A DNA stretch of 64,000 nt, taken from an uncultured bacterium (GTDB taxonomy: Bacteria > Patescibacteriota > Minisyncoccia > Phycocordibacterales > Phycocordibacteraceae). Positions 5,827 through 55,603 of this stretch are shown here, piece after piece. The position numbers were made by a program, and so were the translations under genes. The notes under the pieces were generated by a model. That model saw only the letters and a program-made list of their open reading frames with translations. It ran no database searches and was not told the origin of the DNA. The stretch is from assembly GCA_947085505.1 (NCBI GenBank), contig CAMTWI010000003.1, forward strand, positions 7,319 through 71,318, written 5' to 3'. Each line of letters begins with the position of its first letter. Position 1 is the first letter of the stretch.

Positions 5827-5881
5827 ATCCTCATAATGGCACGTACGCGATATACTGCTCGCACATCTAACCCGCAATCCT

Positions 5882-6463: not shown

Positions 6464-6466
6464 CAG

Positions 6467-7948: not shown

Positions 7949-7951
7949 AGG

Positions 7952-19640: not shown

Positions 19641-19740
19641 AAAAGAATCGTAGCATGCAAAATGAAACGGGCCGGACTCTCTAAAGGAGAATCCAGCCCG
19701 TGAACTATCGGTTCATGAACGCGAGCCGAGACGTGATGAC

Positions 19741-20088
19741 CTAGTGGCCGCGTCCCTTGGACGCGTGGACATCCGCCAGCGGGTCGGAATGCCGATGGCC
19801 AACGAACGTAATGGCGAGCATGCCGGCCAGGATTCCGAAACCGATGGCGAACGAAAATGCACTGCCAGACCAGCCGGTCGCCATAATACCGACAGCGACG
19901 GCGCCGATACCGATGACCCAGGCGAACCAGTCCGGCTTCCTGGCGATCAGGGCGGTAAAGAAGGCCAGAACTCCAGCCAACAGGTAGAAATGCAGGCTGC
20001 TGGGCATCAGGTTCAGGACCACGGCCCCACCGAAGACTGCGGCCAACGCAAGGCCAATGGCGACAAGAAATTTGGACATGCTATTCAC
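19741..20088 (-). CDS. small polytopic membrane protein of atypical (GC-rich) composition
   Basis: 115 aa with about 4 hydrophobic helices. Local GC is roughly 60% or more by hand count, against a background of about 50-55%. GCC/GCG-biased codons. It is inserted between pilC and pilB. Confidence 0.45.
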   Translation of the reverse strand: MNSMSKFLVAIGLALAAVFGGAVVLNLMPSSLHFYLLAGVLAFFTALIARKPDWFAWVIGIGAVAVGIMATGWSGSAFSFAIGFGILAGMLAITFVGHRHSDPLADVHASKGRGH

Positions 20089-20170
20089 TCCCAGGACGCG
20101 CGTACCTAGTTAATCCAGATACTCTTTCGCGTCTCCTCCCTGGTTATACGCCCGCTGTACTAAAATGCAA

Positions 20171-21925
20171 CTATTCTGAAACCGCTCTCAACACCTCCTC
20201 AACCGAGGTAATTCCACGCGTGGACTTGTAGAGGCCGTCTTCGAGCATTGTTAGCATGCCTTCTTTGCGCGCCTGAGCCTCAATAGCGTCTGGTGCTGCG
20301 TTGTGGAGAATGAGCTCACGAAGTGCAGATGAAAGCATCAAGACCTCATGAATACCGATACGACCTGAGTATCCATCCTCGCACTGTGGAGACGGGACCG
20401 GCCTATAGAATGGAACAGCATCCATTGTTGTTCCCTCCTTCACGAGCTTCTCTTCAATAAGCGCCTTGAGTACATTGTCGAACTTGTCCGCACTCGCGAC
20501 CTTCTCACGTTCGACCGCATCAAGCGCATACTGTTCTTTTCCGTCGCAGAGTCTACGCACAAGACGCTGACCCATAACCATGCGCAGCGTTGAAACCAAG
20601 AGGAATGGTTCCACGCCCATATCCATGAGACGCGGGATGGCACCGGCCGCAGAGTTCGTGTGAATGGTTGAGAGTACGAGGTGTCCGGTGAGTGCGGCGT
20701 TAATCGCTAGGGACGCCGTCTCAGCGTCACGAATCTCTCCCACCATGATGATGTTCGGGTCCTGACGAAGGAGTGCACGGAGTCCATTGGCGAACGTAAA
20801 GCCTATGGCTGGGTTCACCTGTGTCTGATTCACACGCTTCATCTGGTACTCGATCGGATCCTCAACAGTTGAGATATTAACGTCCGGCGTATTCAAAATA
20901 TCGAGGATGGTATAGAGCGTTGTGGTCTTTCCAGAGCCAGTTGGTCCGGAAATCAAAATGATGCCCGTTGTCTGTTTCATAGACTGGTGCACCCGCTCAA
21001 GCCCTGAGCCATGGAACCCGAGCACATCAAGCGTAAATCCTTCGCCGGTCTCCCTAAGGAGACGCATAACAATCTTTTCGCCAAAGTACGTCGGCAGAAG
21101 AGACACACGGAACGACACCTTGTCTGCTTCAGTCTCCATCTTGAAGCGGCCGTCCTGCGGCAAGCGCTTCTCGTCGAGCTTCAGGTTTGCAAGCACTTTA
21201 ATGCGGGCGGTAATGCCGGACGCTGCGGTGCGTGGAAGCGTCATCGCGTCATGCAACACGCCGTCAATGCGGTAGCGGACGAGCACTTCCTGTTCCATTG
21301 GCTCAATATGGATATCTGATGCCTTCTGGATAATTGCGTGGCGTAAGAGCGTATCAACGATGCGTACAATTGGTAGGTCCTCGGCCATCTTCTTCAGATC
21401 CTCGCCAGACGCATCATCTCCTAGCTGCCCGTCCTTTATAAGGTTGATGCGGCCGGCTTCGGTTGTGATGAGGTCGCCGAACTCTTCCTTAAGAGACTTC
21501 TGGTACTGCAGGAGCACGTTCTTGAGTGACTCGTCGTCGGTGAGGCGTGGAAGAATCTTGAGACCTGTTGTCTTACGCACCGAGTCGATAGCCGGAAGGT
21601 CCTCAGTATCAAGCATCGCTACTTCGAGCGAGCTCCCATCCTTCTTGAACGCAACGATGGAGTGCGTGCGTGCGATTGGTTCTGGGATTAACGAGAGGAC
21701 GTTCAAGTCGATCTTCTTGTCCTTCAGATTAACGAAGGGAATTCCAAGGACGTATGCTTTTATGCGGCGAAGACTGTCGGTTGAGAGAAGTCCCTGTGCA
21801 ATCAAGATGTCGCCGATAGACTGCTTCTTTCGCTTCGCTTCCTCATCTGCAGCCTCAACATCCTTCCGGGACACGAGTCCGGAGTCGAGAATGAATTCCT
21901 TAAGTTCGCTTTCAGAGACCTGCAT
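20171..21925 (-). CDS. pilB: type IV pilus assembly ATPase PilB/GspE
   Basis: Walker A GPTGSGKTTT, Asp box, His box, Walker B GEIRD, and N-terminal GSPII domain. Length 584 aa. Confidence 0.9.
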   Translation of the reverse strand: MQVSESELKEFILDSGLVSRKDVEAADEEAKRKKQSIGDILIAQGLLSTDSLRRIKAYVLGIPFVNLKDKKIDLNVLSLIPEPIARTHSIVAFKKDGSSLEVAMLDTEDLPAIDSVRKTTGLKILPRLTDDESLKNVLLQYQKSLKEEFGDLITTEAGRINLIKDGQLGDDASGEDLKKMAEDLPIVRIVDTLLRHAIIQKASDIHIEPMEQEVLVRYRIDGVLHDAMTLPRTAASGITARIKVLANLKLDEKRLPQDGRFKMETEADKVSFRVSLLPTYFGEKIVMRLLRETGEGFTLDVLGFHGSGLERVHQSMKQTTGIILISGPTGSGKTTTLYTILDILNTPDVNISTVEDPIEYQMKRVNQTQVNPAIGFTFANGLRALLRQDPNIIMVGEIRDAETASLAINAALTGHLVLSTIHTNSAAGAIPRLMDMGVEPFLLVSTLRMVMGQRLVRRLCDGKEQYALDAVEREKVASADKFDNVLKALIEEKLVKEGTTMDAVPFYRPVPSPQCEDGYSGRIGIHEVLMLSSALRELILHNAAPDAIEAQARKEGMLTMLEDGLYKSTRGITSVEEVLRAVSE

Positions 21926-39068: not shown

Positions 39069-40094
39069 CTAGGAACCGAATGGATTCTTCGCGCCACGAA
39101 CCTCGAAGTGGAGGTGGTAGCCAGTAGACTGTCCGGTGTTTCCAACCGTACCAATGTTTTGGCCACGGGAGACTGTCTCACCAACCGATACAGCATTTGT
39201 GCTCATGTGCGAGTAAAGGGTCTGTACGCCGTTTCCGTGATCAATAACCACGTAGTTGCCGTATCCGCCGTTCCATCCACCAACACGCGAGACAATGACA
39301 GTACCGCCAGCAGCAGCATTAACCGCGGAGCCCTGCGGCGCTGCAAGGTCAACACCGTTCCAGCCGTGGATACCCTGGGACACGCGACCGGACGGGGCAG
39401 GGTTTGCAAAGCCGCCCGATATCGCGCCTGAGTTGTTTCCGGTACCGAGCACGGAACCAAGACTGCCTCCGGTCTTAATGTTTGACGTGGCCTTTGCAAC
39501 TGACTTCTTTGCAGGAGCCTTAACTTCAGCAATCTCGCCACCAGGGATGATAACGGTGTCGCCGGCAGTAAGGGAGCCCGCACGAGAAAGGCCATTATAG
39601 GAAGCAATCTCGTCAGCGTCAGAGTTGTAGCGCTTTGCGAGGGTCGCGAGAGTGTCGCCCGACACTACTTGGTGACGGATACCGGACACCGGAAGGATAA
39701 CAAGGGTCATGCCTGGGCGTACGGCACCCTTATTGGAGAGGTTATTTGCCCAAAGGATCGTATTCATCGATACGTCGAACATGTCTGCGATCTCCGAGAG
39801 GGAGTCTCCCTCACGAACGGTATACGTAGAGATGCGACCAGAGGAGGTGGTGCGGTCAATGTCTGCAATAGTACCGTCTGGGCCCGTGTAGGCGATAAGC
39901 GCCGACCCGCCAGTTGTTGCGATGCCACCACGGCCCTTGGCAGGATTTGGGTCAGGGTTAACGGCTGCCTGAAGCAGATCAAGGCTGCTGTCATGGACCA
40001 TGGGTACGGTCGAAGTACCGTCCGATGCTCTCGTAACAGAAAAAGGCCAAAACGCGCCGGCGGCACGTGGCGTGAACATGATTCCTATCCCCAA
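39069..40094 (-). CDS. peptidoglycan DD-metalloendopeptidase: 2x LysM plus M23 peptidase domain
   Basis: Two LysM repeats, YTVREGDSLSEIA and HQVVSGDTLATLAKRY. M23 motifs HGWNGVDLAA, GNYVVIDHGNG and GYHLHFEVR are all present. Confidence 0.8.
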   Translation of the reverse strand: MGIGIMFTPRAAGAFWPFSVTRASDGTSTVPMVHDSSLDLLQAAVNPDPNPAKGRGGIATTGGSALIAYTGPDGTIADIDRTTSSGRISTYTVREGDSLSEIADMFDVSMNTILWANNLSNKGAVRPGMTLVILPVSGIRHQVVSGDTLATLAKRYNSDADEIASYNGLSRAGSLTAGDTVIIPGGEIAEVKAPAKKSVAKATSNIKTGGSLGSVLGTGNNSGAISGGFANPAPSGRVSQGIHGWNGVDLAAPQGSAVNAAAGGTVIVSRVGGWNGGYGNYVVIDHGNGVQTLYSHMSTNAVSVGETVSRGQNIGTVGNTGQSTGYHLHFEVRGAKNPFGS

Positions 40095-43138: not shown

Positions 43139-44143
43139 ATGGCTCATTCTACCCGTACACTCCGCATCGCTGCCGCTTCGTTACTAGCCGTTCTCATGGT
43201 GGGAGGTACCTATCTCTCGACCGGACCAAACCCCTTCTTCGGCCTAACACGCATCGTTGGTGCGCAGTCTTCTGAAGAACTCCTGCGCGAATATGCTGCA
43301 AAGGATAGCGACAGTGACGGGCTACCTGATTGGCAGGAAGCGCTGTACGGGACTGATCCCTTTAACCCCGAGTCGTTTAGGGTAGGTATTCTTGATGGGG
43401 AAGCGGTTGCACAGGGACTTATTGAGCCGAGAGTTACCGTGCGCGCCGAAAAAGAACCCACCGACCCAAACTCTATCCCCGGCACTGCAGGTGCTCCATC
43501 CTCTCTCACCGACCGTTTCGCTCAAACACTCCTCAAACAGTATCTTTTGAATCGTACCGGCACCCCTCCGAGCCAGGAGGAGATTGTTGCATTTGTGCAG
43601 AAAGGGGTTGCGGAGCTTTCTGCAAGTGCTGTCGAGAGAGACCGTTACACGCTTAGTGATGTTCGTGTTTCGGGAGACTCGGGAAGCGCAGCTCTTATTG
43701 CATACGCAGCGGAGGCGGAGGCGGCTATTGCAGCAAACACCGTTTCGAGCTCCATAAGTGCGCGCAACGAGCTTTCCTACTTCCAGGATGCAATACGAGG
43801 AGACGATGCTGCGCTAGCGAAGGTTTCTGCCTACAGCAAGGCCTACGCGGCAATGGGTGACGCCCTTATTCGCCTCCCGGTGCCACAAGAAGTACGTCAG
43901 TCGCATCTCACCATCGTTAACGCAACCATGCACCTAAGTAGCATGACCGCTGATATGGCAACACTTAAAGAAGATCCACTTCGAGCACTCATGGGCATCG
44001 GTCTGTATGGGAAACATGCAACGAGTATGAAGTCTGGATTTGCGAACCTAAACGGCGTGTTTAGGGCGAGACAGGTTTCCTTAACTAAAGGACAGCCTGG
44101 ATACGAGATCTTTAACACAAGCGAGTTAGCTGCTGCCCAGTAA
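43139..44143 (+). CDS. membrane-anchored protein of unknown function, first gene of T4SS-like operon
   Basis: N-terminal TM. DSDSDGLPDW is a Ca-binding-like DxDxDG motif. The rest is mostly alpha-helical. Confidence 0.4.
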   Translation: MAHSTRTLRIAAASLLAVLMVGGTYLSTGPNPFFGLTRIVGAQSSEELLREYAAKDSDSDGLPDWQEALYGTDPFNPESFRVGILDGEAVAQGLIEPRVTVRAEKEPTDPNSIPGTAGAPSSLTDRFAQTLLKQYLLNRTGTPPSQEEIVAFVQKGVAELSASAVERDRYTLSDVRVSGDSGSAALIAYAAEAEAAIAANTVSSSISARNELSYFQDAIRGDDAALAKVSAYSKAYAAMGDALIRLPVPQEVRQSHLTIVNATMHLSSMTADMATLKEDPLRALMGIGLYGKHATSMKSGFANLNGVFRARQVSLTKGQPGYEIFNTSELAAAQ

Positions 44144-44144
44144 C

Positions 44145-45599
44145 ATGACAACCTTCCGAAATAAAGCTCCCCTGGCAACCCTGCTTCTCGGAAGCCTGCT
44201 TCTGGTTTCGTGTGTCGTCGCAGCTCCGCAGACGGCACGCGCCGCTGACTACGATAGTCCTCTCCAGGTATTTAACTCGCTCGTAACGTCGCTTAGTACC
44301 GCAGCAGATAGAACGCTCAACTACATACTAAACGGACTTGCATGGGATTTGGCAAACCTTGCCATTGAATCCATGACCAAGAGTACGGTTAACTGGATTA
44401 ATTCTGGATTCCAGGGGTCTCCAGCATTCGTTACGGATCTCAGACAGAATATGCGTGGTGTTGCTGACACGATTGCGGGCCGCTTCTTTGACGAACTTAG
44501 TGAGACAAATTTTGGAAGGTCTCCATTCCAGGATCGCGTACTTGACGCAGTCCGTCTTGGGTATTATCTGCGCACAAGTCCAGAATCGTTTTATGTCCGC
44601 TATCCATATACGTTAAACCAGGTTAGTGCAGACGACCGTGCCTTCCTTCGTGGGGATTTCAGCCAGGGAGGTTTCAATGCATGGTTTGCAACCGTGATGT
44701 ACCCAGAGAACAATCCGTACGGAATGAACATCCTTCTGAACGAACAGCTTGAAAACAGGATTGGAAGCGGTCTTTCCATCCGTAGCCAGGAACTCGACTG
44801 GAGCAGGGGCTTTCTGTCGTGGAGGGGGGACTGCATTGCCACCGCACCGAATTCTGGAGCAAACAACACCCCAGTTAATCTCACGAATGAAGAACCGTGT
44901 ATAGATTACGAAGTCCTCACGCCAGGATCTGTCATACAAGAGGGACTTAACAAAGCACTCGGCGCTGGCCAAGATCGTCTTGTTGTTGCAGATGACTTCA
45001 ATGAGATCATCAGCGCGCTTTTGAATCAGCTTGTGGGCCAGGTGCTCGGAGGGAACAGTTCGGGCGGACTTCGAGGAGTATCTCGTCCAGCAACCGGAGG
45101 AGGATCCTCGTTCCTTGATCGATCCACTGATCCAACACTCAACCCTGGAAACAGCGCGAACACTGGTACCGCGTTCGCTGCAACCATTGCAGAACAGCGT
45201 TCGATTCTTGAGAGACACCAGGCTAGCTGGGAGAGGATTAGGGGTGCAGCACAAGCGGCACTCTCACGCTGCGGACCTGGTGGAGAACCGAACCCGGAGG
45301 TCGTTGTCACCCGTGCACAAGACGCACTTGTTAAGGCAGCGAACGGCATCGCAGCGTACCGCGATCTTGAGGAGCGCATCGCTGCCACTATAGCTGCTGG
45401 TGGGAACCAGACCGCTGCCATAACGCAGATTGTGAACGACTTCACAGCGCTTGGTCGCTCTGCAATGGTTCCAACAAGCGAAGAGATAGCGGAGGCGCAG
45501 ATTCAGGCGCAGGATACAGGGGACATTCGACCGGGATCGCTCTATAGCCAGATGAGTCGCCAGGCTGCAGGCAGTTGCCTTGCCGGCTCGTCTGAATAA
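44145..45599 (+). CDS. secreted protein of unknown function (signal peptide) in T4SS-like operon
   Basis: Signal peptide ...SCVVAAPQTARA. 484 aa. No recognisable catalytic motif. Confidence 0.4.
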   Translation: MTTFRNKAPLATLLLGSLLLVSCVVAAPQTARAADYDSPLQVFNSLVTSLSTAADRTLNYILNGLAWDLANLAIESMTKSTVNWINSGFQGSPAFVTDLRQNMRGVADTIAGRFFDELSETNFGRSPFQDRVLDAVRLGYYLRTSPESFYVRYPYTLNQVSADDRAFLRGDFSQGGFNAWFATVMYPENNPYGMNILLNEQLENRIGSGLSIRSQELDWSRGFLSWRGDCIATAPNSGANNTPVNLTNEEPCIDYEVLTPGSVIQEGLNKALGAGQDRLVVADDFNEIISALLNQLVGQVLGGNSSGGLRGVSRPATGGGSSFLDRSTDPTLNPGNSANTGTAFAATIAEQRSILERHQASWERIRGAAQAALSRCGPGGEPNPEVVVTRAQDALVKAANGIAAYRDLEERIAATIAAGGNQTAAITQIVNDFTALGRSAMVPTSEEIAEAQIQAQDTGDIRPGSLYSQMSRQAAGSCLAGSSE

Positions 45600-45603
45600 T
45601 TAT

Positions 45604-48093
45604 ATGCGAAAGCTCTTCAGAGCATCGCTGTTGATCACCGTACTTTCGGTGTTGCTCTTTATTACTAGCTATTCACCTACCCAGGCCCAAACAACTCTTG
45701 AACAATGTGGCTCCGCAAGCCCACCGGCGGATTGTATTTCGTATGATCCAACAATTAATCCTGTCTTGGTTAGAGAGGGGGCGAGGTATTACCAAGACTG
45801 GGGAACAAGGAGCCCTTACCAAAGCGAAAACGATGGTCTCTGCAAAGTATATGTTTCGGGTCCTGTCTTTTTTGCAGGCTGTGTAAAAGATGGACGTTTT
45901 TCCATTCAAGCTGACTATGTTATAGGGGCCCCCACTGGGGGAGAGCCCGTAACGGGTGTGCAAGTTGATCAGTCTGGGGAAGTTACCTCGCAACCAATCG
46001 AAACCTGTGGGCCAATGAACATCGGTTGTTGGCTAATTAAACTACCCGGCATGCTCTTCACGGGCATTGCATTTGTTTTCTTGCTTCTCTCAGGAATGAT
46101 CCTCGGACTCGCGGGCACAGTGTTCAACTGGGTGGTCATACGTACGGTCTTCCAGTTCGGCACGTATTTCGGCACGAACGAAGGCATGCTTATTGCGTGG
46201 GGCGTGATGCGTGACATTGCAAACATAGGCCTCCTGTTTGGTTTCATATTTATGGGAGTGCTTCTTATACTCAACGTCGATAGTGGGGGACACGGGCACG
46301 GCGGGGGTGTGAGTGCGAAGAAAGCTATACCACGCCTCATCATCTTTGCGGTGCTTTTAAACTTTAGTCTCTTTGCTTCACAGGCGGTTATCGACGTCGC
46401 AAACGCATTTAGCTCAAGCTTTGCAACGCTTGCTGGAGAAAATTGTACTGGCAACACCTCGACAGGGAGCAGTGCCACTGACAGAGCCGCCGGCATGGAC
46501 AATGAGCAATGCTCTAATGTGGGCATATCTGGGCAGATACTAAAAGTGGCTGGTCTCACGTCAATTTGGGATTCAGAAAACAGAGATGTTCAAACTGCAA
46601 TGAAGAATCTTGTCGATCGGCCCTATAGCTATGCGGTGTCCTTGATGCTGCTTTCCATTTTTGTACTCATCACAGCCATGGTGTTACTTGCGGGTTCCAT
46701 CATGCTCATTATCCGTGTGGTTATTTTGTCGCTTCTTATGGTTACGTCGCCCATAGGCTTTGCCGGCATGGCCATACCGAAGCTGCAGGGCATTGCCAGT
46801 ATGTGGTGGAGCAAGCTGATGTCGCAGGCGTTCTTCGCTCCCGTATATCTTCTTCTTATATTTATCAGTATCAAATTAACTGAGGGCCTCATGGAGGGAG
46901 AGGCGACCCTCGCCAATGCACTCATTGCGAATCAAGGAAACTCGGTGGCAGGGAACATGCAGGTGGTTATGGTGTTCATGGTTGTTATCGGATTCATGAT
47001 TGGTTCCTTGCTCGTGGCATCAAAGATGGGGGCGATGGGGGCGAAGTTTGCGACATCGGCAGTCGCAGGAACAACCATTGGTTTTGCTGGTTTTGCCGGT
47101 CGAAGGACGCTCGGAGCAGCATCAGGGAATGTTGCTAAAAGAATTGCATCGTCGAACTACGCTCGTAGCAATGGGTTTGGAAGTAGGTTCGCCTATAACA
47201 TAGCCAACAAGGGTGCTACGGCGAGCTACAGCGCTCGTACTGGTATAAATAACATCACTAAGGGCGCTGGTCTCGACATTGGCAACGCAGGGAAGAATGT
47301 AAGCCATGGAATTCATGGTATTGAGGAGGCAGAGGTGAAAAAACGTAAGGACTTTGCTGAAAAAACCCTTGCGCAGACGCCTGCAGAACAGGCTGCGGAG
47401 AAGAGACTTAAGGATGAGAAGGATCGAATAAAGCTCTATAAAGAGGCGGCCAAGGAAGAGCTCGATCGTGGAAATGAGCCTGAAGAAAGTGCACTCAAGG
47501 CACAGAAGGAGAAGCACACTGAAGCGGCAGCAGCACGTCTAAAAGACCTTAACACCAAAAAGCAGGCTGTAGCAAAGCTTGAGGCTGACGGAGTTTGGGG
47601 TAATGAGCTCGATGAGCAAAAGAAGGCACTTGCTGCCCTAGAGGAGGAGCATGAACAAGCATCTGAGATTGAGGCAGCCGATATTGCGTCTCGTCAAAAG
47701 CGAATATCTGATCGTGGCGCTCGCTTCGATAAGATTCTAAAGGATTACGACAACCGATCGAAAGAAATCGACAGAACTATCAGTGGCTACGAGTCTATCG
47801 ATAGCAGTGGGGGCATTATGTGGAACAAGGGCCTTTCTAAAGAGTCAGCACAACGTGAGTATGGGGAAGCGCTTGGCAAAGACCATGGCATGCCTCTTAC
47901 ACTGGGACACCATATAAACCAAGAGGCTTCCGCAGACATCCTTAAGAAGCTTAAGCGCAGCAAGCGCGACAAGTTGGTTGATGCAATTAAGGAGAATGCC
48001 AAGGAGGACAAAGAGGAGGACGGCGGCGGCAAGAAGGAAGAGAAGTCCAGTGGAGGCGAAAAGAAAAGTGGAGGAGATGGGGGCCATCACTAG
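45604..48093 (+). CDS. VirB6/TrbL-like polytopic T4SS channel protein with Cys-rich N-terminal ectodomain and long K/E-rich C-terminal coiled-coil tail
   Basis: A signal peptide is followed by a Cys-containing domain of about 130 aa. Then 6 or more TM helices. Then about 330 aa of charged coiled coil, ending in a Gly/Lys-rich tail. Start trimmed to MRKLFRAS. Confidence 0.55.
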   Translation: MRKLFRASLLITVLSVLLFITSYSPTQAQTTLEQCGSASPPADCISYDPTINPVLVREGARYYQDWGTRSPYQSENDGLCKVYVSGPVFFAGCVKDGRFSIQADYVIGAPTGGEPVTGVQVDQSGEVTSQPIETCGPMNIGCWLIKLPGMLFTGIAFVFLLLSGMILGLAGTVFNWVVIRTVFQFGTYFGTNEGMLIAWGVMRDIANIGLLFGFIFMGVLLILNVDSGGHGHGGGVSAKKAIPRLIIFAVLLNFSLFASQAVIDVANAFSSSFATLAGENCTGNTSTGSSATDRAAGMDNEQCSNVGISGQILKVAGLTSIWDSENRDVQTAMKNLVDRPYSYAVSLMLLSIFVLITAMVLLAGSIMLIIRVVILSLLMVTSPIGFAGMAIPKLQGIASMWWSKLMSQAFFAPVYLLLIFISIKLTEGLMEGEATLANALIANQGNSVAGNMQVVMVFMVVIGFMIGSLLVASKMGAMGAKFATSAVAGTTIGFAGFAGRRTLGAASGNVAKRIASSNYARSNGFGSRFAYNIANKGATASYSARTGINNITKGAGLDIGNAGKNVSHGIHGIEEAEVKKRKDFAEKTLAQTPAEQAAEKRLKDEKDRIKLYKEAAKEELDRGNEPEESALKAQKEKHTEAAAARLKDLNTKKQAVAKLEADGVWGNELDEQKKALAALEEEHEQASEIEAADIASRQKRISDRGARFDKILKDYDNRSKEIDRTISGYESIDSSGGIMWNKGLSKESAQREYGEALGKDHGMPLTLGHHINQEASADILKKLKRSKRDKLVDAIKENAKEDKEEDGGGKKEEKSSGGEKKSGGDGGHH

Positions 48094-48105
48094 TACAATA
48101 CTGAA

Positions 48106-48909
48106 ATGAATCCCGAAGAAGATCTTGATGACGTTGAAATAAACCAGGCAGTGGGTGCTGCTATGCGTGACTTACCAAGGCCCGTACAGGACTTCCTAAA
48201 GAGCGATGAGCGCGATGCTGTTGCTCGTGAATTGTCTGCAAAATATCAACTCCATGTTGACCAAGCAGGGGAGTTCGAACGATCCTTCATTCTAATGCTC
48301 TTGGGCGTGATGCGTCCCGAGGAATTCGTTACAACCCTGACTCAAGCTGGGCTCTCGCAAGACATTGTTAACGGGCTGGCCGCGGATTTGAACACCCGCG
48401 TATTCATGAAGCTACGTGATGCTGAACGCGAGCAGGTGGCTGCCGTACCCCCAGCACCACAAAAGCCAGCTCCGATTCCGCCACCCGCCCTTGATTACCA
48501 ACCCGCAGCCACACCAACACTCCCTGGTTCCCCTGTACCCGCGCCGATGCCGCCTCCCATAGCTACCCAGGCGCCAGTAGTACTCGAGCCAACGCCTGCA
48601 CCAAGCCCCGTTCCGCAGCAGCACTTTGTACACGCAATGCCTGATGCGCACGCTCAAGCCGGGTGGCACCCAGCTGCGGCAGTACATATATTTGTACCGA
48701 CTCAACCAAACCACCATCCGCAGCCTGCACCTATGCAGACCGTCCCTAGCATCGAGCCCGCTCCTGAAGTAGAGCCCGTAGCTGCGCGAATCGAGACCCC
48801 GCCAGCTACAGTGCGTGAGCCGGAGATACTACCTTCACAGCCGACCCTACCATCTACACCACTTAAAAAGGAATTCAGTTCTGATCCGTATCGCGAACCT
48901 ATCCAGTAG
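48106..48909 (+). CDS. proline-rich protein of unknown function in T4SS-like operon
   Basis: An N-terminal globular domain of about 110 aa is followed by a PAP/PxP-rich tail. Confidence 0.35.
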   Translation: MNPEEDLDDVEINQAVGAAMRDLPRPVQDFLKSDERDAVARELSAKYQLHVDQAGEFERSFILMLLGVMRPEEFVTTLTQAGLSQDIVNGLAADLNTRVFMKLRDAEREQVAAVPPAPQKPAPIPPPALDYQPAATPTLPGSPVPAPMPPPIATQAPVVLEPTPAPSPVPQQHFVHAMPDAHAQAGWHPAAAVHIFVPTQPNHHPQPAPMQTVPSIEPAPEVEPVAARIETPPATVREPEILPSQPTLPSTPLKKEFSSDPYREPIQ

Positions 48910-48954: not shown

Positions 48955-49362
48955 ATGGAGTATCAGGTACCACAGTTCATTGAGGTTGAGGACAAGATAT
49001 TCGGTCCGTTCACACTCAAGCAGTTTATTTATGTTGCAGGGGGCGTGGGTCTCTGCGCAATCGTACTCCTCTATCTTCCGCTCTGGCTCGGTATTATCAT
49101 CGCTCTTCCCGTTGGCGCACTCACCGCAGCGCTCGCATTCTATAAGATAAACAACAAGCCGTTTGTTGAAATCATGGAGGCAGCCTTCAACTATTACATC
49201 GGAGATCGTCTCTATCTTTGGAAGAAGGACAGGAACGCGGTAGTAGATGCACCAGTGGCAGTAAAGCCTGCAGACCCCGCAAAGCTTGGTCTAACACAGA
49301 GCAGACTCAAAGATCTTGCATGGTCGCTTGATATCAAGGACAACCAGAATAACGGCGCATAG
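48955..49362 (+). CDS. PrgI/VirB3-like small membrane protein
   Basis: About 135 aa. Two adjacent TM helices near the N-terminus (FIYVAGGVGLCAIVLLYLPLWLGIIIALPVGALTAALAF). It lies immediately upstream of VirB4, as PrgI does. Confidence 0.5.
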   Translation: MEYQVPQFIEVEDKIFGPFTLKQFIYVAGGVGLCAIVLLYLPLWLGIIIALPVGALTAALAFYKINNKPFVEIMEAAFNYYIGDRLYLWKKDRNAVVDAPVAVKPADPAKLGLTQSRLKDLAWSLDIKDNQNNGA

Positions 49363-49364
49363 AT

Positions 49365-49994
49365 ATGGCATCGACAAAGACAACACAATCGTTTGTGCCC
49401 GTGAAGGAAGTCCGTAACGGCGTGGTCGTACTTAAAAATGATGGGTACCGCGGCATTCTCATGTGCTCATCCATTAACTTCGCTCTTAAAGGGGAAGATG
49501 AGCAGCGTGCGATTATAGGCGGGTTCCAGAGCCTTTTGAATACTCTCGATTTTACGATTCAAATTGTTGTACATTCTCGGAAAACCGACATTCGGCCGTA
49601 CCTTGCCTTGCTTGAGACTCGTATGAAGGATCAAACAAGTGAACTCATGCGGCTACAGTTGCGCGAGTATATTGCGTTCATCAGGAACTTCATCGACTCG
49701 AGCGACATTATGACGAAGATGTTCTATGTGGTGGTGCCGTATTCGGCAGGTGGTGGTGGAGTTGGGAAAAGCACCCCCGCATTTCTTGGTGGAAGACCGG
49801 TACCCAAAGACAATGGCGGAGACGGGTTCGAAGAACACCGTGTGCAGCTCGAGCAGCGCATGTCACTTGTTGTGCAGGGACTCGCCTCAAGTGGTGTACG
49901 TGCGGTTCCGCTCGGGACTGAAGAGATAATTGAACTTCTGTACCGTTCGTTCAACCTTTCTGAGCTTGAGAATCCTATTCATCTTTCTGCATAA
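49365..49994 (+). CDS. VirB4/TrbE/PrgJ-type ATPase, N-terminal segment, terminated by in-frame TAA
   Basis: The sequence (FVPVKEVRNGVVVLKNDGYRGILMCSSINFALKGEDEQ...FTIQIVVHSRK) follows the VirB4 N-terminal pattern. It is in the same frame as the downstream ORF and is separated from it by TAA+TCT only. Confidence 0.6.
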   Translation: MASTKTTQSFVPVKEVRNGVVVLKNDGYRGILMCSSINFALKGEDEQRAIIGGFQSLLNTLDFTIQIVVHSRKTDIRPYLALLETRMKDQTSELMRLQLREYIAFIRNFIDSSDIMTKMFYVVVPYSAGGGGVGKSTPAFLGGRPVPKDNGGDGFEEHRVQLEQRMSLVVQGLASSGVRAVPLGTEEIIELLYRSFNLSELENPIHLSA

Positions 49995-49997
49995 TCT

Positions 49998-51821
49998 ATG
50001 GCACTCCTCGACTTCCTTGGAAAGAATAAGAAAGAAGACGCGCCCGCGATAACGCCGGTGCTGCCAAAGGACATTTATGCAGAAGGGGAGCTAAAGCTTG
50101 CGGATGCTATTGCGCCTGCGGCTCTTAAAGTGGGGGCCCGAGAGCTTGAACTCGGCGAGAAGGTGTCTCGCTCGTTCTATACCATTTCGTATCCACGATT
50201 CTTGGTTGATAGCTGGTTCACGCCAATTATCAATCTCGATAAGGTATTCGATGTATCGATCTTCATTCATCCGGTAGAGACGGGGTCTGCACTCCGCGGA
50301 TTCCAGAAAAAAGTGGCCGAAATTGAGAGTCAGATTTCTGATAGGGAAGAGAAGGGGTTGGTGCGTGACCCAATGCTCGATACCGCGTACCGCGACCTCG
50401 AGCAGCTCCGCGACCAGTTGCAGCAGGCTGAGGAACACATCTTTGAGGTAGGTCTTTACATCACCCTCTACGGAAACTCGAAAGAGGACCTCGACAAGAT
50501 TGAGGGTGATGTGCGCGGCATCCTCGACGCAAAGCTTGTCTACACAAAGCCTGCCTTGTTCCAGCAGGAACAAGGATTCCGTTCTACGTTGCCACTTGCT
50601 ACCGACGAACTCATGGTTACGAGCAAGCTCAACTCGTCACCGCTTTCTTCAATATTCCCATTCGTCTCCTTCGACCTTACGAGCGATCGCGGCATTCTCT
50701 ACGGCATCAATCGCCATAACGCGTCCTTGATCCTCTTTGATCGCTTCTCGCTTGAGAACTACAACTCGGTGGTGTTTGCAAAGTCTGGTTCCGGAAAGTC
50801 CTACGCAGTGAAGCTCGAAATTCTTCGCTCTCTCATGTTTGGGTCGGATGTTATTGTCATCGACCCTGAGCGCGAATACGAGAACCTCGCGTCTGCAACT
50901 GGGGGACGCACCTTTAACATCTCGCTCTCCTCTGAACATCACATCAATCCGTTTGATCTTCCGCCCGTTAAAGAGGACGAGGAGCCGTCCGACATTCTTC
51001 GTTCAAACATCATTAACCTTGTTGGTCTCTTCCGCATCATGCTTGGGGGACTAACCCCTGAGGAGGATGCGATTGTTGATCGCGCTATTACAGAGACCTA
51101 TGCCCTTAAAGACATTACGGGTGATGCGGACTTCACGGGTGTAGAGCCACCACTTCTTTCAGACTTTGAGAACGTCCTTTCAGGGATGGAGGGCTCGGAA
51201 TCCCTTGTTATACGCCTTTCCAAGTACACGCACGGCACCTGGGCGGGATTCATAAATCAACCAACCAACATCGATATCAACAAGCAGTTCATTGTGTTCT
51301 CGGTGCGCGATATGGAGGACGAGTTGAAGCCGGTAGCGATGTACATCATTACGCACTTCATCTGGAACGCGGTGCGACACGAGCTCAAGAAGCGCCTTCT
51401 CGTCATCGACGAGGCCTGGTGGATGATGAAGTCGGAAGATACAGCGTCTTTCCTCTACAGCGTCGCGAAGCGCGGACGTAAGTACTATCTCGGTGTCGCG
51501 ACCATAACCCAGGATGTGGAGGACTTCTTGAAGAGCCCGTATGGTCGACCAATCCTCACAAACTCCTCAATGCAACTTTTGTTGAAGCAGTCTCCAACAA
51601 CAATCAATGTGCTTAAAGAGACTTTCAACCTAACCGATGAGGAGAAGTTCTTGCTCCTTGAGTCAGGTGTGGGGGAGGGACTCTTCTTTGCAGGACTTAA
51701 GCACGTCGCGATTAAGATCGTTGCTTCCTATACTGAAGACCAAATCATAACCTCAGACCCGTCGCAGCTTCTCCAGATCAGGCAGGAAAAGGCAAGGAAC
51801 GACGCAGGGCTCGTAGCCTAG
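49998..51821 (+). CDS. VirB4/TrbE/PrgJ-type T4SS ATPase, ATPase segment
   Basis: Walker A FAKSGSGKSY and Walker B LVIDEAWWMM. Conserved ATITQ near the C-terminus. Confidence 0.85.
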   Translation: MALLDFLGKNKKEDAPAITPVLPKDIYAEGELKLADAIAPAALKVGARELELGEKVSRSFYTISYPRFLVDSWFTPIINLDKVFDVSIFIHPVETGSALRGFQKKVAEIESQISDREEKGLVRDPMLDTAYRDLEQLRDQLQQAEEHIFEVGLYITLYGNSKEDLDKIEGDVRGILDAKLVYTKPALFQQEQGFRSTLPLATDELMVTSKLNSSPLSSIFPFVSFDLTSDRGILYGINRHNASLILFDRFSLENYNSVVFAKSGSGKSYAVKLEILRSLMFGSDVIVIDPEREYENLASATGGRTFNISLSSEHHINPFDLPPVKEDEEPSDILRSNIINLVGLFRIMLGGLTPEEDAIVDRAITETYALKDITGDADFTGVEPPLLSDFENVLSGMEGSESLVIRLSKYTHGTWAGFINQPTNIDINKQFIVFSVRDMEDELKPVAMYIITHFIWNAVRHELKKRLLVIDEAWWMMKSEDTASFLYSVAKRGRKYYLGVATITQDVEDFLKSPYGRPILTNSSMQLLLKQSPTTINVLKETFNLTDEEKFLLLESGVGEGLFFAGLKHVAIKIVASYTEDQIITSDPSQLLQIRQEKARNDAGLVA

Positions 51822-51824
51822 CGT

Positions 51825-52328
51825 ATGGAAAAGAAGCATAAGATAGGAAATGTAACGGCCGGCATGATGATCGTGACGGCACTTATTGTTGATGCGGTCC
51901 AGGCATTGCTTACGTTCTCTGTTTTCCTTCTTCCTCTCTCTGTTCTTATAACGTTTATGGCAGCGACGATGTTCTTTCTCTGGTTTGCACTGTCCGGTGT
52001 GAAGTATGTGGGGAGTGGTGGAGGAAAGAAGCTTCTTATCGCACTTGCCTCAACAGTTGCTGAGCTCGTGCCGGTAGTTAATGTCATCCCCGCAACGACA
52101 GCAGGTGTTATTGGTATCATCGTTCAGACTCGTATTGAGGATGCTCGGGCACAAGCAGGAGGGAAAGTCACACCGCGCACAGCTATGGCTTCGGCGAGAC
52201 TACAAAAAATGAATCAGGCACGGGCTGCACGGGAAGACAGCGCCCGTGAAGGAAGAGAAGGAGCCCAACAGGCACGACACACCCCCGCAAATGACACTTC
52301 TGCCCACAATACTAGCGAAGCCGCATAA
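51825..52328 (+). CDS. small polytopic membrane protein (possible VirB2/TrbC-like or accessory)
   Basis: Three hydrophobic helices, then a charged tail. Confidence 0.35.
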   Translation: MEKKHKIGNVTAGMMIVTALIVDAVQALLTFSVFLLPLSVLITFMAATMFFLWFALSGVKYVGSGGGKKLLIALASTVAELVPVVNVIPATTAGVIGIIVQTRIEDARAQAGGKVTPRTAMASARLQKMNQARAAREDSAREGREGAQQARHTPANDTSAHNTSEAA

Positions 52329-52375
52329 GATACCCCCGCGTAGGCACGCGCTCCCACACCGCTTCGGTATATACT

Positions 52376-53368
52376 ATGTATATGATACGCGTTGTGCTTC
52401 TCGCTTTTGTCTTCGCCGGCTCCTTTCTTGGCGTCTCGCATGCTCAAGGTATTCCAAACAGCACCGAGCCGCTTACGCTATCGGTATCTCCTGAATATCC
52501 TCGTCCTTACCAAACCGTTACTGTCTCCCCCCGAAGTAGTCTTCTTGACCTCTCGGCGAGTACGGTACGGATATCGGTTAATGGAACTACTGTCTATGAA
52601 GGAAGTGGCACCCAGGCTACAAGTGTGCGAGCAGGGGGCCTTGGAGAGCGCACAACCATAACGGTGTCGGTTACGGATCCTTCTGGCCGTGTCTATACCA
52701 AACAGCAAGTCTTGCGACCGGCAGAGGTGTCCTTGGTGCTTGAACCGGCATCAACCATGCACCCGTTCTACCAGGGAGGGGGACTCGTTGCATCAGAGGG
52801 GCGTGTGCGTCTTGTGGCGCTTGCTGATCTGCGCAGTGCACCAGGAACTCGTCTCCCAAGCTCAAGCCTCGTCTATACCTGGCGACTTGGAAGCCGTGTA
52901 CTAACGGACATGTCGGGTATAGGAAAGTCCACGCTCCTCGCAACCGCACCGGTTCGATACCGCAATGCCGATATCTCTGTTACGGTTACGAGCCCGGACA
53001 ACACACTCGTTGGCGAGGCACGCACACTTGTATCAGCGGTCGATCCTGTGGCGCGTATATATAGGAACGACCCGCTCCTTGGCCCTAACTTTGATGTCGC
53101 TCTCACCGATCGCTTCTCGATGCCTGACACTGAGACAACCTTCCGCGCTGTTGGATACTTCTTTGCCGTGCCACCAACATTTTCGTGGACGGTTAACAAA
53201 GCAACCAATGGAACTGACAAAGACATAACTGTGCGCGCAACTGGAAACGGGCAGGGTACCGCACGGATCGGCCTTACAGCGACCGAAGTCGCTGCCAGAC
53301 GCAGTGCGGATACTGCGGTTACTGTAGACTTCGGACGATCTACTGGCTTTGGCTTCTTTGGCCTATAA
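52376..53368 (+). CDS. secreted beta-rich protein of unknown function (signal peptide ...SHA|Q)
   Basis: Signal peptide MYMIRVVLLAFVFAGSFLGVSHAQ. Ser/Thr/Val-rich. Confidence 0.4.
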   Translation: MYMIRVVLLAFVFAGSFLGVSHAQGIPNSTEPLTLSVSPEYPRPYQTVTVSPRSSLLDLSASTVRISVNGTTVYEGSGTQATSVRAGGLGERTTITVSVTDPSGRVYTKQQVLRPAEVSLVLEPASTMHPFYQGGGLVASEGRVRLVALADLRSAPGTRLPSSSLVYTWRLGSRVLTDMSGIGKSTLLATAPVRYRNADISVTVTSPDNTLVGEARTLVSAVDPVARIYRNDPLLGPNFDVALTDRFSMPDTETTFRAVGYFFAVPPTFSWTVNKATNGTDKDITVRATGNGQGTARIGLTATEVAARRSADTAVTVDFGRSTGFGFFGL

Positions 53369-53372
53369 CCCT

Positions 53373-54383
53373 ATGAAATATCTCACTTTTCTCATACTTT
53401 TCCTCGGCCTTCCACTGCTCGCGTTTGCGCAGACGACAACCGGAGCCGTAAACACGGACACCAGTTTTGTTCCACTCACGAACATTCCGTTCCTTACCGA
53501 AACAGGAAACTCCTTCAGTCTTGATTCGTTTTTAAACGGGCTTTATCGCATAAGTATCGGTATCGCTGCTGTTGTTGCGGTCCTTCAGATCATGCGCGCG
53601 GGCATTATGTATATGGGCAGCGATAGTGGATTCGCTGAGAAAAAAGAGGCGAAGAATCTTATAGCACTCTCGATAGGCGGCCTTATTCTTGTGCTTTCAC
53701 CGGTGGTTGTGTTCTCCGTTATTAATCCTGAGATTCTTAATCTTAAGATAGGGAATATCGAGAAACTTAAACCCATTGAGTCTGCTGAACCTCGTAGAGT
53801 AATTGAGGTTGCGTCGGCAAGTGACTGTAGAGAGCAAGGAGGCGTAGTTGAGTCACAGGGACCACCAGTAACCTGTTCTGTACCAGCGGATTCTGATGCG
53901 GGCCGAGAAGCGACTTCCTGTGCCACCTTTAACAATCCTCCTGAGTCTCCAATTATTGTGGGCGGGAATTGTGCACTCGAGCTTAGTGAAAGTTACGTAA
54001 GAATTGATAATGCCTGTTGCGCCGGTATTCAGCAGGGAAATATTTGCTGTGGAAAAAGCGAAAGCTCAGGTGAGCAAGCGCCACGCGTCTTCCTTGATCA
54101 GCCGCTCATCTACTACAGCTATCAAGAGTACGACCGTGTAGAAAATAAAGGTAGGTTTGTTGGTGTGGTTCCGAACCATGCCGCGAGGGTTACTAGTTTT
54201 AGAAATGCTTGCACTGCAGCGGGCAGAGAAGTAGAGACAGATCGTGACGATAACTGGGCTGAGCGTTTTATCCTGGCTCGATGGGGAAGCTGTCCAGGGG
54301 ACACAGGTGTTCCTGCTAGTACAGGAAACACGAACACAGAGTATCAGTGTGAAGATAGAAGAGCTGTCTGTAAGACGAATTAA
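53373..54383 (+). CDS. VirB2/TrbC pilin-like N-terminal module fused to Cys-rich C-terminal domain
   Basis: A signal peptide is followed by two closely spaced hydrophobic helices (LYRISIGIAAVVAVLQIMRAGIMYM / LIALSIGGLILVLSPVVVF), as in T4SS pilins. The last ~200 aa contain about 17 Cys, including CC pairs. Confidence 0.4.
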   Translation: MKYLTFLILFLGLPLLAFAQTTTGAVNTDTSFVPLTNIPFLTETGNSFSLDSFLNGLYRISIGIAAVVAVLQIMRAGIMYMGSDSGFAEKKEAKNLIALSIGGLILVLSPVVVFSVINPEILNLKIGNIEKLKPIESAEPRRVIEVASASDCREQGGVVESQGPPVTCSVPADSDAGREATSCATFNNPPESPIIVGGNCALELSESYVRIDNACCAGIQQGNICCGKSESSGEQAPRVFLDQPLIYYSYQEYDRVENKGRFVGVVPNHAARVTSFRNACTAAGREVETDRDDNWAERFILARWGSCPGDTGVPASTGNTNTEYQCEDRRAVCKTN

Positions 54384-55603
54384 TGCAGCCTATGAACCGC
54401 CGCATCCTCATCATTGTCGCCAGCATCGTAGTTGTACTCGGCCTGCTTGTTGGTGCGTACTTCCTCTTCTTTAACAACCCGACTCTCTCGGTTGGAGTAC
54501 CAAGTAACCCCTTCGGTTCGAGTGGGAATCGCACAGAAACCGAACTTCTCAGTCCAGACGGGCAACCCACTCGAGGGGCTGGGACAGTTGTGGCACCCCG
54601 TCTTATACGTATTAGCGACGCACCTGTCGCCAAGGGCGCTGTAGCACTTTATATCCCGCCAGTACCTGCAGCGACTTCTACAGAGCCTGGTATACCTGCT
54701 GATACTGAGATTCGCTTCATAGAGCGCCAGAGCGGGAACATCTACGCATTCAGGGTCCATGATCGTGTGCTTACCCGTATTTCAAACCGCACACTTCCGG
54801 GTATACAGGAAGCAGCTTGGACCACAGACGGCGGTCGTGCATTCGTTCGCTACCTAACACGATCAACTGATGGTACAGAGCGTGTTGATACCTACATGCT
54901 CCCAGCTGATGGTGGAGAAGGGTACTTCCTTGAGCAGGATCTCGAGCAGGTTGCTGTACGAGCCACAAGCACGGTGTTCTCACTCCTTCCGAGCACGTCT
55001 GGATCCATTGGGTCTTTGTCTTCTCCAGACGGAACAAACGTACGAACACTCTTTACGTCAGCGCTTTCACGACTACGTGCAGGATTCTCTGGTGCAAACA
55101 TTGTTGCAACCACCAAAGCCTCGAGCGGGCTTGATGGATATTCGTTCCTTGTGGACGGCGGGTCATTCACGCGCATCCTGGGGCCCCTCAGGGGACTTGC
55201 AACCCTTCCAAACCAAGAAGGGACATCAGTCCTCTACAGCCATGTAGATGCCAATCGCACCTACCTGCAAGTACTTGACCTCGCAACAAGAAACGCAACG
55301 GCACTTCCGCTCGTTACGCTCGTAGAGAAATGCGTGTGGGAACCAGGAGGCAGGGCAGTGTATTGCGGTGTACCAACCGCACTCGCAGGCAACGTTCCAG
55401 ACGAATGGTATCAAGGCGCTAAAACATTCTCTGACCGCATCTGGCGCATCGATTTAGATACCCGTCTCGCAACACTTGTCGTTGACCCAGGACAAGTGGC
55501 AAATGTGGCCATTGACGCGATTGCGCTCACAATTGATTCGAAGGGTGATGTCCTTGTCTTTACAAACAAGAAAGACGGCACGCTCTGGGTATACGACCTT
55601 TAA
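54383..55603 (+). CDS. N-terminally anchored extracytoplasmic protein of unknown function, last gene of T4SS-like operon
   Basis: Single N-terminal TM. The ectodomain is beta-rich. Its start overlaps the upstream stop (TAATG). Confidence 0.4.
   Translation: MQPMNRRILIIVASIVVVLGLLVGAYFLFFNNPTLSVGVPSNPFGSSGNRTETELLSPDGQPTRGAGTVVAPRLIRISDAPVAKGAVALYIPPVPAATSTEPGIPADTEIRFIERQSGNIYAFRVHDRVLTRISNRTLPGIQEAAWTTDGGRAFVRYLTRSTDGTERVDTYMLPADGGEGYFLEQDLEQVAVRATSTVFSLLPSTSGSIGSLSSPDGTNVRTLFTSALSRLRAGFSGANIVATTKASSGLDGYSFLVDGGSFTRILGPLRGLATLPNQEGTSVLYSHVDANRTYLQVLDLATRNATALPLVTLVEKCVWEPGGRAVYCGVPTALAGNVPDEWYQGAKTFSDRIWRIDLDTRLATLVVDPGQVANVAIDAIALTIDSKGDVLVFTNKKDGTLWVYDL

Follow-up and report, generated by a model that had tools for sequence, protein, structure and literature searches.

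VirB6 is the central membrane piece of type IV secretion system (T4SS) machines. Chromosomal T4SSs of Patescibacteria are known from the work of Wang et al. 2023 (PMC10633639) and from the survey of Quinonero-Coronel et al. 2025 (PMC12102498), according to which they comprise VirB4, TrsD, PrgI/VirB3, VirB6 and VirB2-like pilins encoded near dnaA/ksgA, usually without a relaxase. The earlier description reports two proteins of S. epibionticum, SEML1_0011 and SEML1_0013 (998 and 1,088 amino acids (aa)), that carry C-terminal helical-repeat domains and are both essential, and for one of which TrbL/VirB6 was the best structural match (PMC10633639). Here, we analyse a gene in a 64,000-nucleotide (nt) stretch of the genome of an uncultured patescibacterium (assembly GCA_947085505.1, contig CAMTWI010000003.1), referred to below as the window. 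The gene, an open reading frame (ORF) of 829 aa at 45604–48093 on the + strand, very probably encodes the VirB6 (TrbL-family) membrane subunit of a chromosomal, origin-proximal Paceibacterota T4SS. This assignment, which had been predicted from the sequence, holds indirectly, through the presence of PF04610 in relatives, the first rank of TrwI/VirB6 in Foldseek searches and the T4SS operon context. Comparison of the gene with its relatives shows that it is a mosaic of three modules (ectodomain, membrane core and tail) that evolve independently.

The published Patescibacteria systems likewise combine a VirB4 of the mating-pair formation (MPF) FATA lineage with TrsD, PrgI/VirB3 and VirB6, on the chromosome near dnaA/ksgA and without a relaxase, and their VirB2-like pilins have a candidate counterpart in our cluster. 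As judged from their published descriptions, the two SEML1 proteins resemble ours in being very large, with C-terminal helical domains, whereas Saccharibacteria tails are annotated as ARM-repeat-like and the tail considered here is predicted to form long helices rich in lysine and glutamate (K/E-rich). Of the structurally characterised VirB6 proteins, we compared TrwI/VirB6 of R388 (PDB 7O3V, 8RT9 and 8RTD; PMC9259494). In both proteins, the core consists of about seven long helices that are mostly hydrophobic, and both are encoded with VirB3 and VirB4, but TrwI has 342 aa and no signal peptide, ectodomain or long tail, and the R388 system is a conjugation system of the diderm MPF-T type, which also has VirB5, an outer-membrane complex, a relaxase and a coupling protein. 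PrgH of pCF10, the MPF-FATA VirB6 analogue, is polytopic and, as is the case for our gene, encoded directly upstream of PrgI and a CD1110-type VirB4, but it has only 266 aa and no extensions.

Closer in size are proteins of the ‘extended VirB6’ type, defined by five or more hydrophobic helices and large hydrophilic domain(s) in a central or C-proximal position, the contribution of these extra domains being stated as unknown (PMC12857230). ConG, TcpH and Orf15 have this organisation, and so does our protein, in which the C-terminal hydrophilic region measures ~350 aa, the central loop 75 aa and the N-domain 111 aa. TcpH of pCW3 (832 aa) and the Tn916 Orf15-type protein (725 aa) end in 295–400 hydrophilic, K/R- and D/E-rich residues, but have no Cys-rich N-domain preceded by a cleavable signal peptide (0 Cys in Orf15, 5 in TcpH). 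ConG of ICEBs1 has seven predicted transmembrane segments, and the variable loop between the third and the fourth sets exclusion specificity (10.1101/2021.01.25.428195), a situation analogous to the variable, putatively external parts of our protein. All three proteins belong to DNA conjugation systems with a relaxase and a coupling protein.

The ORF starts with ATG, 4 nt after the upstream TAA, and its stop codon lies within the span given above; an alternative start, TTG at 45580, would run into the upstream gene. It is not a chance ORF: at least 412 homologues were found in a word-indexed database, and an exhaustive search with a profile of the core retrieved 17,125 clusters (50% identity) at E ≤ 0.001 and 2,935 at E ≤ 1e-30. 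Where named, all of the homologues come from metagenome-assembled genomes (MAGs) of Patescibacteria, Paceibacterota or Parcubacteria, as do 59 of the 60 genome loci, and the best locus (L008, labelled Candidatus Paceibacterota) has a core identity of 97%. The protein is indeed far larger than canonical VirB6, as originally predicted, but this size is unexceptional and the norm in its family, which has a median of ~810 aa; the median extensions of 230 members are 142 aa before the core and 326 aa after it, compared with 139 and 324 aa in our protein.

The N-terminal ectodomain and its replacement among close relatives

The predicted signal peptide was recovered by hydropathy analysis as a signal-like segment at residues 1–28 (MRKLFRAS...TQA, followed by Q; 45604–45687). 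A28 is nearly invariant in family alignments, in an AxA-Q context, and of the 172 members in which the N-extension is long, 156 start with a hydrophobic, signal-like stretch. The putatively extracytoplasmic N-domain that follows (residues 29–139; 45688–46020) is T/S/G-rich, hypervariable and Cys-bearing; AlphaFold2 models it with a predicted local distance difference test score (pLDDT) below 50–65 and with short beta strands at residues 80–131, so that the globular fold originally predicted for it stays putative. The cysteine-containing ectodomain of the original prediction is present, with six Cys in residues 29–142 (positions 35, 44, 80, 93, 135 and 142), but the pair quoted there, C35 and C44, is unconserved; C80, C93 and C135 are kept in 26–34 of 40 relatives.

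In relatives with 87–92% identity in the core, identity falls to ~15% in the ectodomain and to 21–39% in the signal peptide. At the DNA level, we identified by blastn a segment at 45573–46044 (+ strand) that is replaced among close relatives: similarity to L008, which is 92–93% in the flanks, ends at 45572 and restarts at 46045, and the same breakpoints are found in comparisons with loci L009 and L003. The replaced segment begins in the upstream gene, whose last 27 nt it includes, covers the signal peptide and ectodomain, and stops where the first core helix starts. Its global identity is 60.4%, compared with 61.4 ± 1.9% for shuffled sequences, whereas identity at 4-fold degenerate sites is 80% in the flanking gene and 74% in the core. 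Since the segment is as divergent as shuffled sequence between flanks with neutral-site identities of 74–80%, drift alone is insufficient to account for it.

The 14 relatives with the nearest cores carry ectodomains without detectable similarity to that of our protein, and ectodomains of its type (34–40% identity, E down to 2e-19) are found on cores ranked 86th–229th. Clustering of 172 ectodomains with BLAST yielded 45 clusters, and related ectodomains occur in just 24 of the 96 pairs whose cores are at least 85% identical; some clusters are mutually remote homologues, and the cluster that includes our protein is linked significantly to none. Across 36 loci (630 pairs), the similarities of ectodomain and core are uncorrelated (rho = −0.14), and no co-variation was observed between the ectodomain and g484, the gene directly next to it (r = −0.01). 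The signal peptide is nevertheless preserved, as are the size and Cys content of the ectodomain. These patterns suggest that the ectodomain represents a surface-exposed cassette that is either exchanged through recombination or subject to strong diversifying selection.

The alternative is that the apparent cassette results only from relaxed constraint, misassembly or misalignment. The region is of low complexity (T/S/G/N 30–41%) and poorly modelled, MAG assemblies can be chimeric, and L008 has a run of Ns in the same gene. The breakpoints, however, agree in three independent assemblies, and an artefact or a loss of constraint fits poorly with shuffled-level identity between conserved flanks, with the reappearance of one ectodomain type on distant cores, with the lack of correlation over 630 pairs and with the retention of signal peptide, size and cysteines; we consider this explanation unlikely.

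A second copy of the ectodomain was not found within the window, and a search with the ectodomain alone against 5.8 billion protein clusters returned nothing but a 91-aa fragment of the same gene at the end of a contig. This fragment (P0243) shares the locus-tag prefix Q8S35 with P0005, a 100%-identical fragment of 497 aa, and both apparently come from one MAG, in which an identical copy of our gene is distributed over two contigs; the break of this assembly inside the ectodomain suggests strain heterogeneity there. In L008, at 5584–8005, the N-run (read as X) falls in the VirB6 gene, which is therefore seen as two ORFs (526 and 234 aa), and the ‘gap’ in its tail is partly technical.

Topology, the C-terminal tail and the neighbouring gene g267

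Topology was assigned by the positive-inside rule from the mean charges per loop in 230 aligned sequences. Loops 223–244 (K+R 2.6, D+E 1.0), 391–404 (2.0 and 0.9) and 474–505 (3.6 and 0.2) are assigned to the cytoplasm, and loops 188–202 (0.03 and 0.5), 267–341 (2.5 and 5.9, with exactly two Cys) and 424–447 (1.4 and 2.1) to the external side. The large acidic loop at residues 267–341 (46402–46626) contains the two further cysteines of the protein, C281 and C303, which are invariant in 40 close relatives, and averages 2.00 Cys over the 230 members. N-extensions usually contain 5–6 Cys, compared with zero in the tails of 224 of 224 members. Because of the loop charges and the distribution of Cys, we infer that the ectodomain and the large acidic loop lie outside and the tail in the cytoplasm. 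The same orientation, with the N-terminus out, a large external loop and the C-terminus in, is reportedly that of A. tumefaciens VirB6.

The original prediction allowed the tail to be either cytoplasmic or a surface fibre; the basic segment after the last helix and the absence of Cys favour the former and disfavour the latter. An extracellular tail, forming a surface fibre or host-contact stalk, would be in keeping with the periplasmic adaptors EmrA and LipC, weak Foldseek matches that have long charged helical hairpins, with the large extracellular C-terminal domain predicted for ConG (10.1101/2021.01.25.428195), and with the unreliability of hydropathy-based pass counts in the VirB6 family (PMC9259494). 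It is nevertheless quite improbable, given that the post-helix segment is strongly basic across the 230 members, that every putatively external part has conserved Cys and the tail has none, and that the tail co-varies (see below) with g267, the product of which itself has no signal peptide or transmembrane segment.

The tail begins with a conserved, basic, G/A/S/N-rich juxtamembrane segment (residues 480–584; 47041–47355), assigned to the cytoplasm, which occupies the first 95–105 residues after the last hydrophobic helix and contains 11 K+R vs. 1 D+E. This is followed by a poorly conserved K/E-rich helical region (residues 585–764; 47356–47895) with two long predicted helices, by a conserved C-terminal motif (residues 765–800, ..GHHINQEASADILKKLKRSKRDKLVDAIKE; 47896–48003) and by a low-complexity G/K/E end that closes in GGHH before the stop codon (48004–48093). 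K and E make up 15% and 14% of residues 570–829, but the K/E-rich part measures ~195–260 aa and not the ~330 aa originally predicted. The predicted Gly/Lys end is evident in the composition of the last 40 residues (K 22.5%, G 22.5%, E 17.5%).

In a full-length AlphaFold2 model, pLDDT is 84–96 over residues ~566–804, which are modelled as helices 566–588, 593–661 and 667–727, a small beta hairpin, and helices 746–759, 767–784 and 787–804; helices 593–661 and 667–727 have a pLDDT of ~90. Foldseek pairs the tail with antiparallel hairpins (PI3K p85 iSH2, Smc5/6 arms, YscO and EmrA), all of them non-significant. The long helices of the predicted coiled coil are thus confidently modelled and the helicity of the tail is credible, but tests of the coiled coil itself were weak: in the comparison of heptad patterns with shuffled sequences, only a single window (~699–727) exceeded expectation (p = 0.03).

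Conservation in the tail peaks in HG(Y/I)HGIEE (residues 568–575) and in h-A-n-H-e-A-A..I.K...KS..eK (~768–792), on either side of the poorly conserved long helices; within the C-terminal motif, A775 is conserved in 89% and I779 in 90%. Tail length is 270–370 aa in 86% of the 230 members. We distinguished an H class of tails, with His within the last three residues (122 of the 230 members, including our protein), from a W class, with Trp within the last eight residues (73 of 230). The column of residue 773 holds His in 76% of H-class tails, and the juxtamembrane segment with HG(Y/I)HGIEE is found in 90 of 121 H-class but in 0 of 72 W-class tails, which share neither of the two conserved H-class segments. 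Profile-profile comparison gave no support for the two classes being remote homologues (P = 0.23), and W-class proteins had no Pfam domains. The pattern is consistent with a tail composed of a conserved membrane-proximal base and a helical projection into the cytoplasm, variable in sequence and fixed in length.

Histidines are also frequent elsewhere in the family. His is the final residue of 102 of the 230 members, and many members close in a Gly/Ala/Pro-rich stretch and then H or HH, and the putatively cytoplasmic loop 223–244 includes GGHGHGGG at residues 227–234 (46282–46305), with at least two His there in 72 of the 230 members. The terminal His, the loop His and the His motifs of the tail hint at metal binding.

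The next gene, g267 (48106–48909, + strand), encodes a protein with a conserved N-terminal part of ~110 aa and a Pro-rich C-terminal half, predicted to be cytoplasmic; Pfam and PDB searches with it were empty. Comparison of tail and g267 similarities, with core similarity controlled for, shows that the two co-vary (partial Mantel r = 0.50, p = 0.001). Among loci with a core identity of ~55% or more, g267 is 44–72% identical to the copy in the window when it lies behind a His-type tail and 24–36.5% when it lies behind a Trp-type tail, and these ranges hold regardless of core similarity. The tail probably docks a cytoplasmic partner, for which the g267 product is the best candidate. In locus L010, g267 diverges in one block together with the VirB6 tail, blastn similarity being absent between 47056 and 48953.

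Family membership of the core and setting of the operon

The polytopic core (residues 140–479; 46021–47040) has hydrophobic segments at ~146–183, 201–229, 240–266, 340–392, 403–430 and 446–479, and in the AlphaFold2 model it forms six to seven long helices, most of them hydrophobic (140–190, 193–222, 238–276, 340–390, 392–430 and 448–474; pLDDT mostly ~80–90). Six or more transmembrane segments had been predicted, with fewer than four, or a core unlike VirB6/TrbL, named as grounds for refutation; we find ~7 hydrophobic helices and a TrbL-related family. Invariant core residues include R203, D204, D264, R371, P383, W401 and P413.

Of 40 closer relatives, 5 matched PF04610 at E ≤ 0.01, as did 19 among 58 diverse ones, and no other family recurred. 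Two of the relatives, P0099 and P0116, match our protein at E = 1e-123 and 1e-116 (41–43% identity) and score 32.4 and 31.4 bits against the PF04610 cutoff of 25.9, covering model positions 11–213 of 215, which places the TrbL model on the core. In Foldseek searches of the PDB with two independent AlphaFold2 models, R388 TrwI/VirB6 chains ranked first both times, filling 6 of the top 7 ranks with one model and the top 3 with the other (probability up to 0.97). The original prediction had called for alignment of the core to VirB6, TrbL and PrgH models, and here the outcome was divided, in that relatives pass PF04610 but hhalign comparisons with TrwI and PrgH were non-significant; a Pro...Trp segment was nevertheless aligned repeatedly, in single-sequence as well as profile runs (residues 357–441 with TrwI 156–244). 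In the published survey, too, it was the MPF-T VirB6 profile and not the PrgH profile that picked up most of the VirB6 proteins of Patescibacteria (PMC12102498). Because relatives pass PF04610 and the context is that of a T4SS, we regard the core as a divergent TrbL/VirB6 domain, with membership established by transitivity and context.

The gene belongs to an 11-gene cluster in the order g334, g484, VirB6, g267, PrgI/VirB3, TrsD, VirB4, g167, g330, g344 and g406, all on the + strand, with gaps between −20 and 47 nt. PrgI/VirB3, TrsD and VirB4 all lie at most 2 kb downstream of the VirB6 gene, in one operon and co-transcribed with it. The PrgI/VirB3-like membrane protein (48955–49362) matches PF12666 with 39.9 bits (cutoff 27); the TrsD/TraC-like N-terminal-domain protein (49365–49994) matches the NCBIfam VirB4 N-terminal and TrsD models, with PF26593 in orthologues; and the VirB4-like ATPase (49998–51821), of the CD1110 (MPF-FATA) type, matches NF045971 with 368.8 bits (cutoff 325) and P-loop_TraG. 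Upstream, g334 (with an N-terminal anchor) and g484 (with a signal peptide and 5 Cys) occupy 43139–45599, with gaps of 1 and 4 nt; downstream, g167 (small, polytopic), g330 (signal peptide), g344 and g406 (N-terminal anchor) occupy 51825–55603, and both groups are syntenic in loci L003, L004 and L005. Beyond the operon lie an oppositely oriented yidC and, after it, dnaA and dnaN, with ksgA upstream, and L003, L004 and L005 (VirB6 identity 36–82%) keep this order, with uvrD and ksgA upstream and yidC, rnpA and dnaA downstream. From its gene content and position, we take the cluster to be the published chromosomal Patescibacteria T4SS.

A rival reading is that the protein is the VirB6 of a mobile integrative and conjugative element (ICE) that moves DNA, rather than part of a domesticated chromosomal secretion or uptake machine. 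The VirB4 belongs to the CD1110 type found in conjugation, PrgI and TrsD are likewise proteins of conjugation systems, pCF10 shares the gene order (PrgH-PrgI-PrgJ), and the large VirB6 analogues TcpH and Tn916 Orf15 sit on conjugative elements. Neither a relaxase nor a coupling protein nor an element integrase was found, however, among the ORFs scanned (at least 250 aa in positions 1–30300 and the main ORFs beyond, with small ORFs not exhaustively covered), the other scanned ORFs of the window being ordinary chromosomal genes (dinB, comEC, recJ, pgk, pilB/pilC, nusA and rny). The cluster lies between ksgA and yidC/dnaA even in relatives with a VirB6 identity of 36–41%, and this constant chromosomal position in distant relatives indicates vertical inheritance; the phylum survey likewise concludes against a mobile element (PMC12102498). 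An ICE origin is therefore hardly to be expected.

That the protein is an unrelated polytopic transporter or permease merely adjoining T4SS genes is very improbable: it has no TrbL match of its own, Saccharibacteria counterparts are labelled ‘ABC-2 permease’ (K01992) or ‘ABC transporter permease’ (Wang 2023 Tables S1/S2) and ABC exporters appear lower in the Foldseek list, but TrbL/VirB6 is the only Pfam family that recurs in relatives, VirB6 chains rank above all transporters in both Foldseek searches (transporters with probability ≤ 0.1 and a root-mean-square deviation of ~30 Å), and the gene is tightly coupled in its operon, in a place upstream of PrgI-VirB4 that parallels PrgH.

Several of the neighbouring genes have features of their own. 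The TrsD-like and VirB4 ORFs are in the same frame, parted by a single TAA and one more codon; we considered a split VirB4 arising as a pseudogene or by recoding and rejected it, as the two are separated by a plain TAA and TrsD is known as a separate protein. The g344 product (53349–54383) has a signal peptide, a VirB2-pilin-like N-terminus with two transmembrane segments and a C-terminal extension with 12 Cys, and gave sub-cutoff matches to T4SS_pilin (E = 0.009), TrbC (E = 0.1) and the Mbov_0395 pilin-like family (E = 0.0025). In comparison with L003, DNA similarity in g344 is lost exactly over its C-terminal part (53768–54390), and the L003 orthologue has 251 aa vs. 344; this part looks like a second variable surface module of the operon. 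A DsbA-like identity of g406, which could have explained the Cys-rich parts, was rejected (DsbA_N only at E = 0.049, no CxxC), and g406 had no match among PDB sequences. Family scans of g334 and g484 gave no match, and a weak match of g484 to an O-GlcNAcase stalk among PDB sequences (E = 0.003) is not trusted. Scans for promoters and terminators gave counts no higher than chance.

Elsewhere in the window, a LysM + M23 peptidase gene (39069–40094, − strand) has a conserved place upstream of uvrD, ksgA and the T4SS in all four genomes examined, and could be the cell-wall hydrolase (VirB1 analogue) otherwise missing from the cluster. The window also contains the type IV pilus genes pilC (T2SSF) and pilB (T2SSE with MshEN) and the competence gene comEC (18429–21925 and 6467–7948, both on the − strand); functions of the type IV pilus and the competence channel are discussed beside the T4SS in the Patescibacteria literature. 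Many MAGs of third-party annotation with a Paceibacteria-type VirB6 (L011, L016–L019 and others) are titled ‘uncultured Candidatus Saccharibacteria’ and one (L046) ‘Bacillota bacterium’, titles that are probably loose or wrong.

Proposed arrangement of the protein and its significance

By analogy with the R388 structure (PMC9259494), the core would oligomerise over the VirB4 ATPase, in the middle of the membrane complex, and would serve as the base of the channel and the assembly platform for the VirB2-like pilin encoded downstream. The signal peptide would export the Cys-stabilised ectodomain, and charge and Cys content suggest that the acidic two-Cys loop is outside too and that the basic juxtamembrane segment and the entire C-terminal tail are in the cytoplasm. 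There, two His motifs (~556–590 and 753–800) would flank the pair of long helices, which probably fold into an antiparallel hairpin that extends along the ATPase, and the tail probably docks the g267 product. The cassette pattern of the ectodomain is as expected for a part that would make contact with a host cell, with the pilus or cell wall, or with an enemy.

Several observations count against this interpretation. The 829-aa protein itself matches no Pfam family at E ≤ 1 and no relevant NCBIfam family, and a core-only profile retrieved nothing among PDB sequences (the full-length profile gave only coiled-coil noise, namely apolipoprotein, lamin and SMC). The Foldseek matches to TrwI/VirB6 are non-significant (E-values 0.11–0.18, TM-score 0.36–0.46 on the target), and because these values are so weak, the likeness in fold is an argument from ranking and not a significant match. 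Comparison with a profile of 121 TrwI sequences by hhalign was also non-significant (probability 2.3%, P = 0.02, 84 columns), as were hhalign comparisons of the family core with single sequences of PrgH, TrwI, TcpH and Tn916 Orf15. As to topology, a seven-pass model needs helix 140–190 (51 residues) to be a hairpin and helix 340–390 to be a single pass, and in the AlphaFold2 model both are single; moreover, just two of the five hydrophobic helices of the R388 protein span the membrane (PMC9259494), so that pass counts based on hydropathy are nominal. In the tail, amphipathic moments (p = 0.66 for 593–661 and p = 0.11 for 667–727) do not support packing of the hairpin, and the co-variation with g267 could stem from physical linkage of adjacent DNA and not from interaction. 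Finally, the function of the whole system is called unknown in the literature (PMC11665869).

A more specific proposal, which we put forward only tentatively and regard as doubtful, is that the protein is a three-module adaptor with a constant channel core, in which a hypervariable, horizontally exchanged surface cassette provides specificity or evasion, and the H- or W-class tail together with g267 forms a docking module that replaces the substrate-recruiting role of the missing coupling protein. The cassette may in that case act in recognition of the host cell, in docking to the pilus or cell wall, or in escape from recognition by host or phage. If this proposal were true, the type of ectodomain would predict host range, and the type of tail and g267 would predict cargo.

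Identifying a VirB6 in such a cluster is not in itself new, nor is its size unusual within the family; what is new is the modular mosaic. As far as the accessible portions of the published accounts of the Patescibacteria T4SS extend (PMC12102498 and PMC10633639), they give no account of how the Paceibacteria protein is built, including the exported Cys-bearing ectodomain, the cassette replacement, the two classes of tail or the co-variation of tail and g267. In the only species tested, epibiotic growth requires the Patescibacteria T4SS, and reviews call its role ‘completely unknown’ (PMC11665869, PMC12857230). Taken together, these findings indicate that in Paceibacteria VirB6 carries a fast-replaced ectodomain and one of two alternative, putatively cytoplasmic tails, with the type of tail following that of the neighbouring gene, and this mosaic offers experimental handles on the system in the form of candidate determinants of specificity and a candidate cytoplasmic partner.

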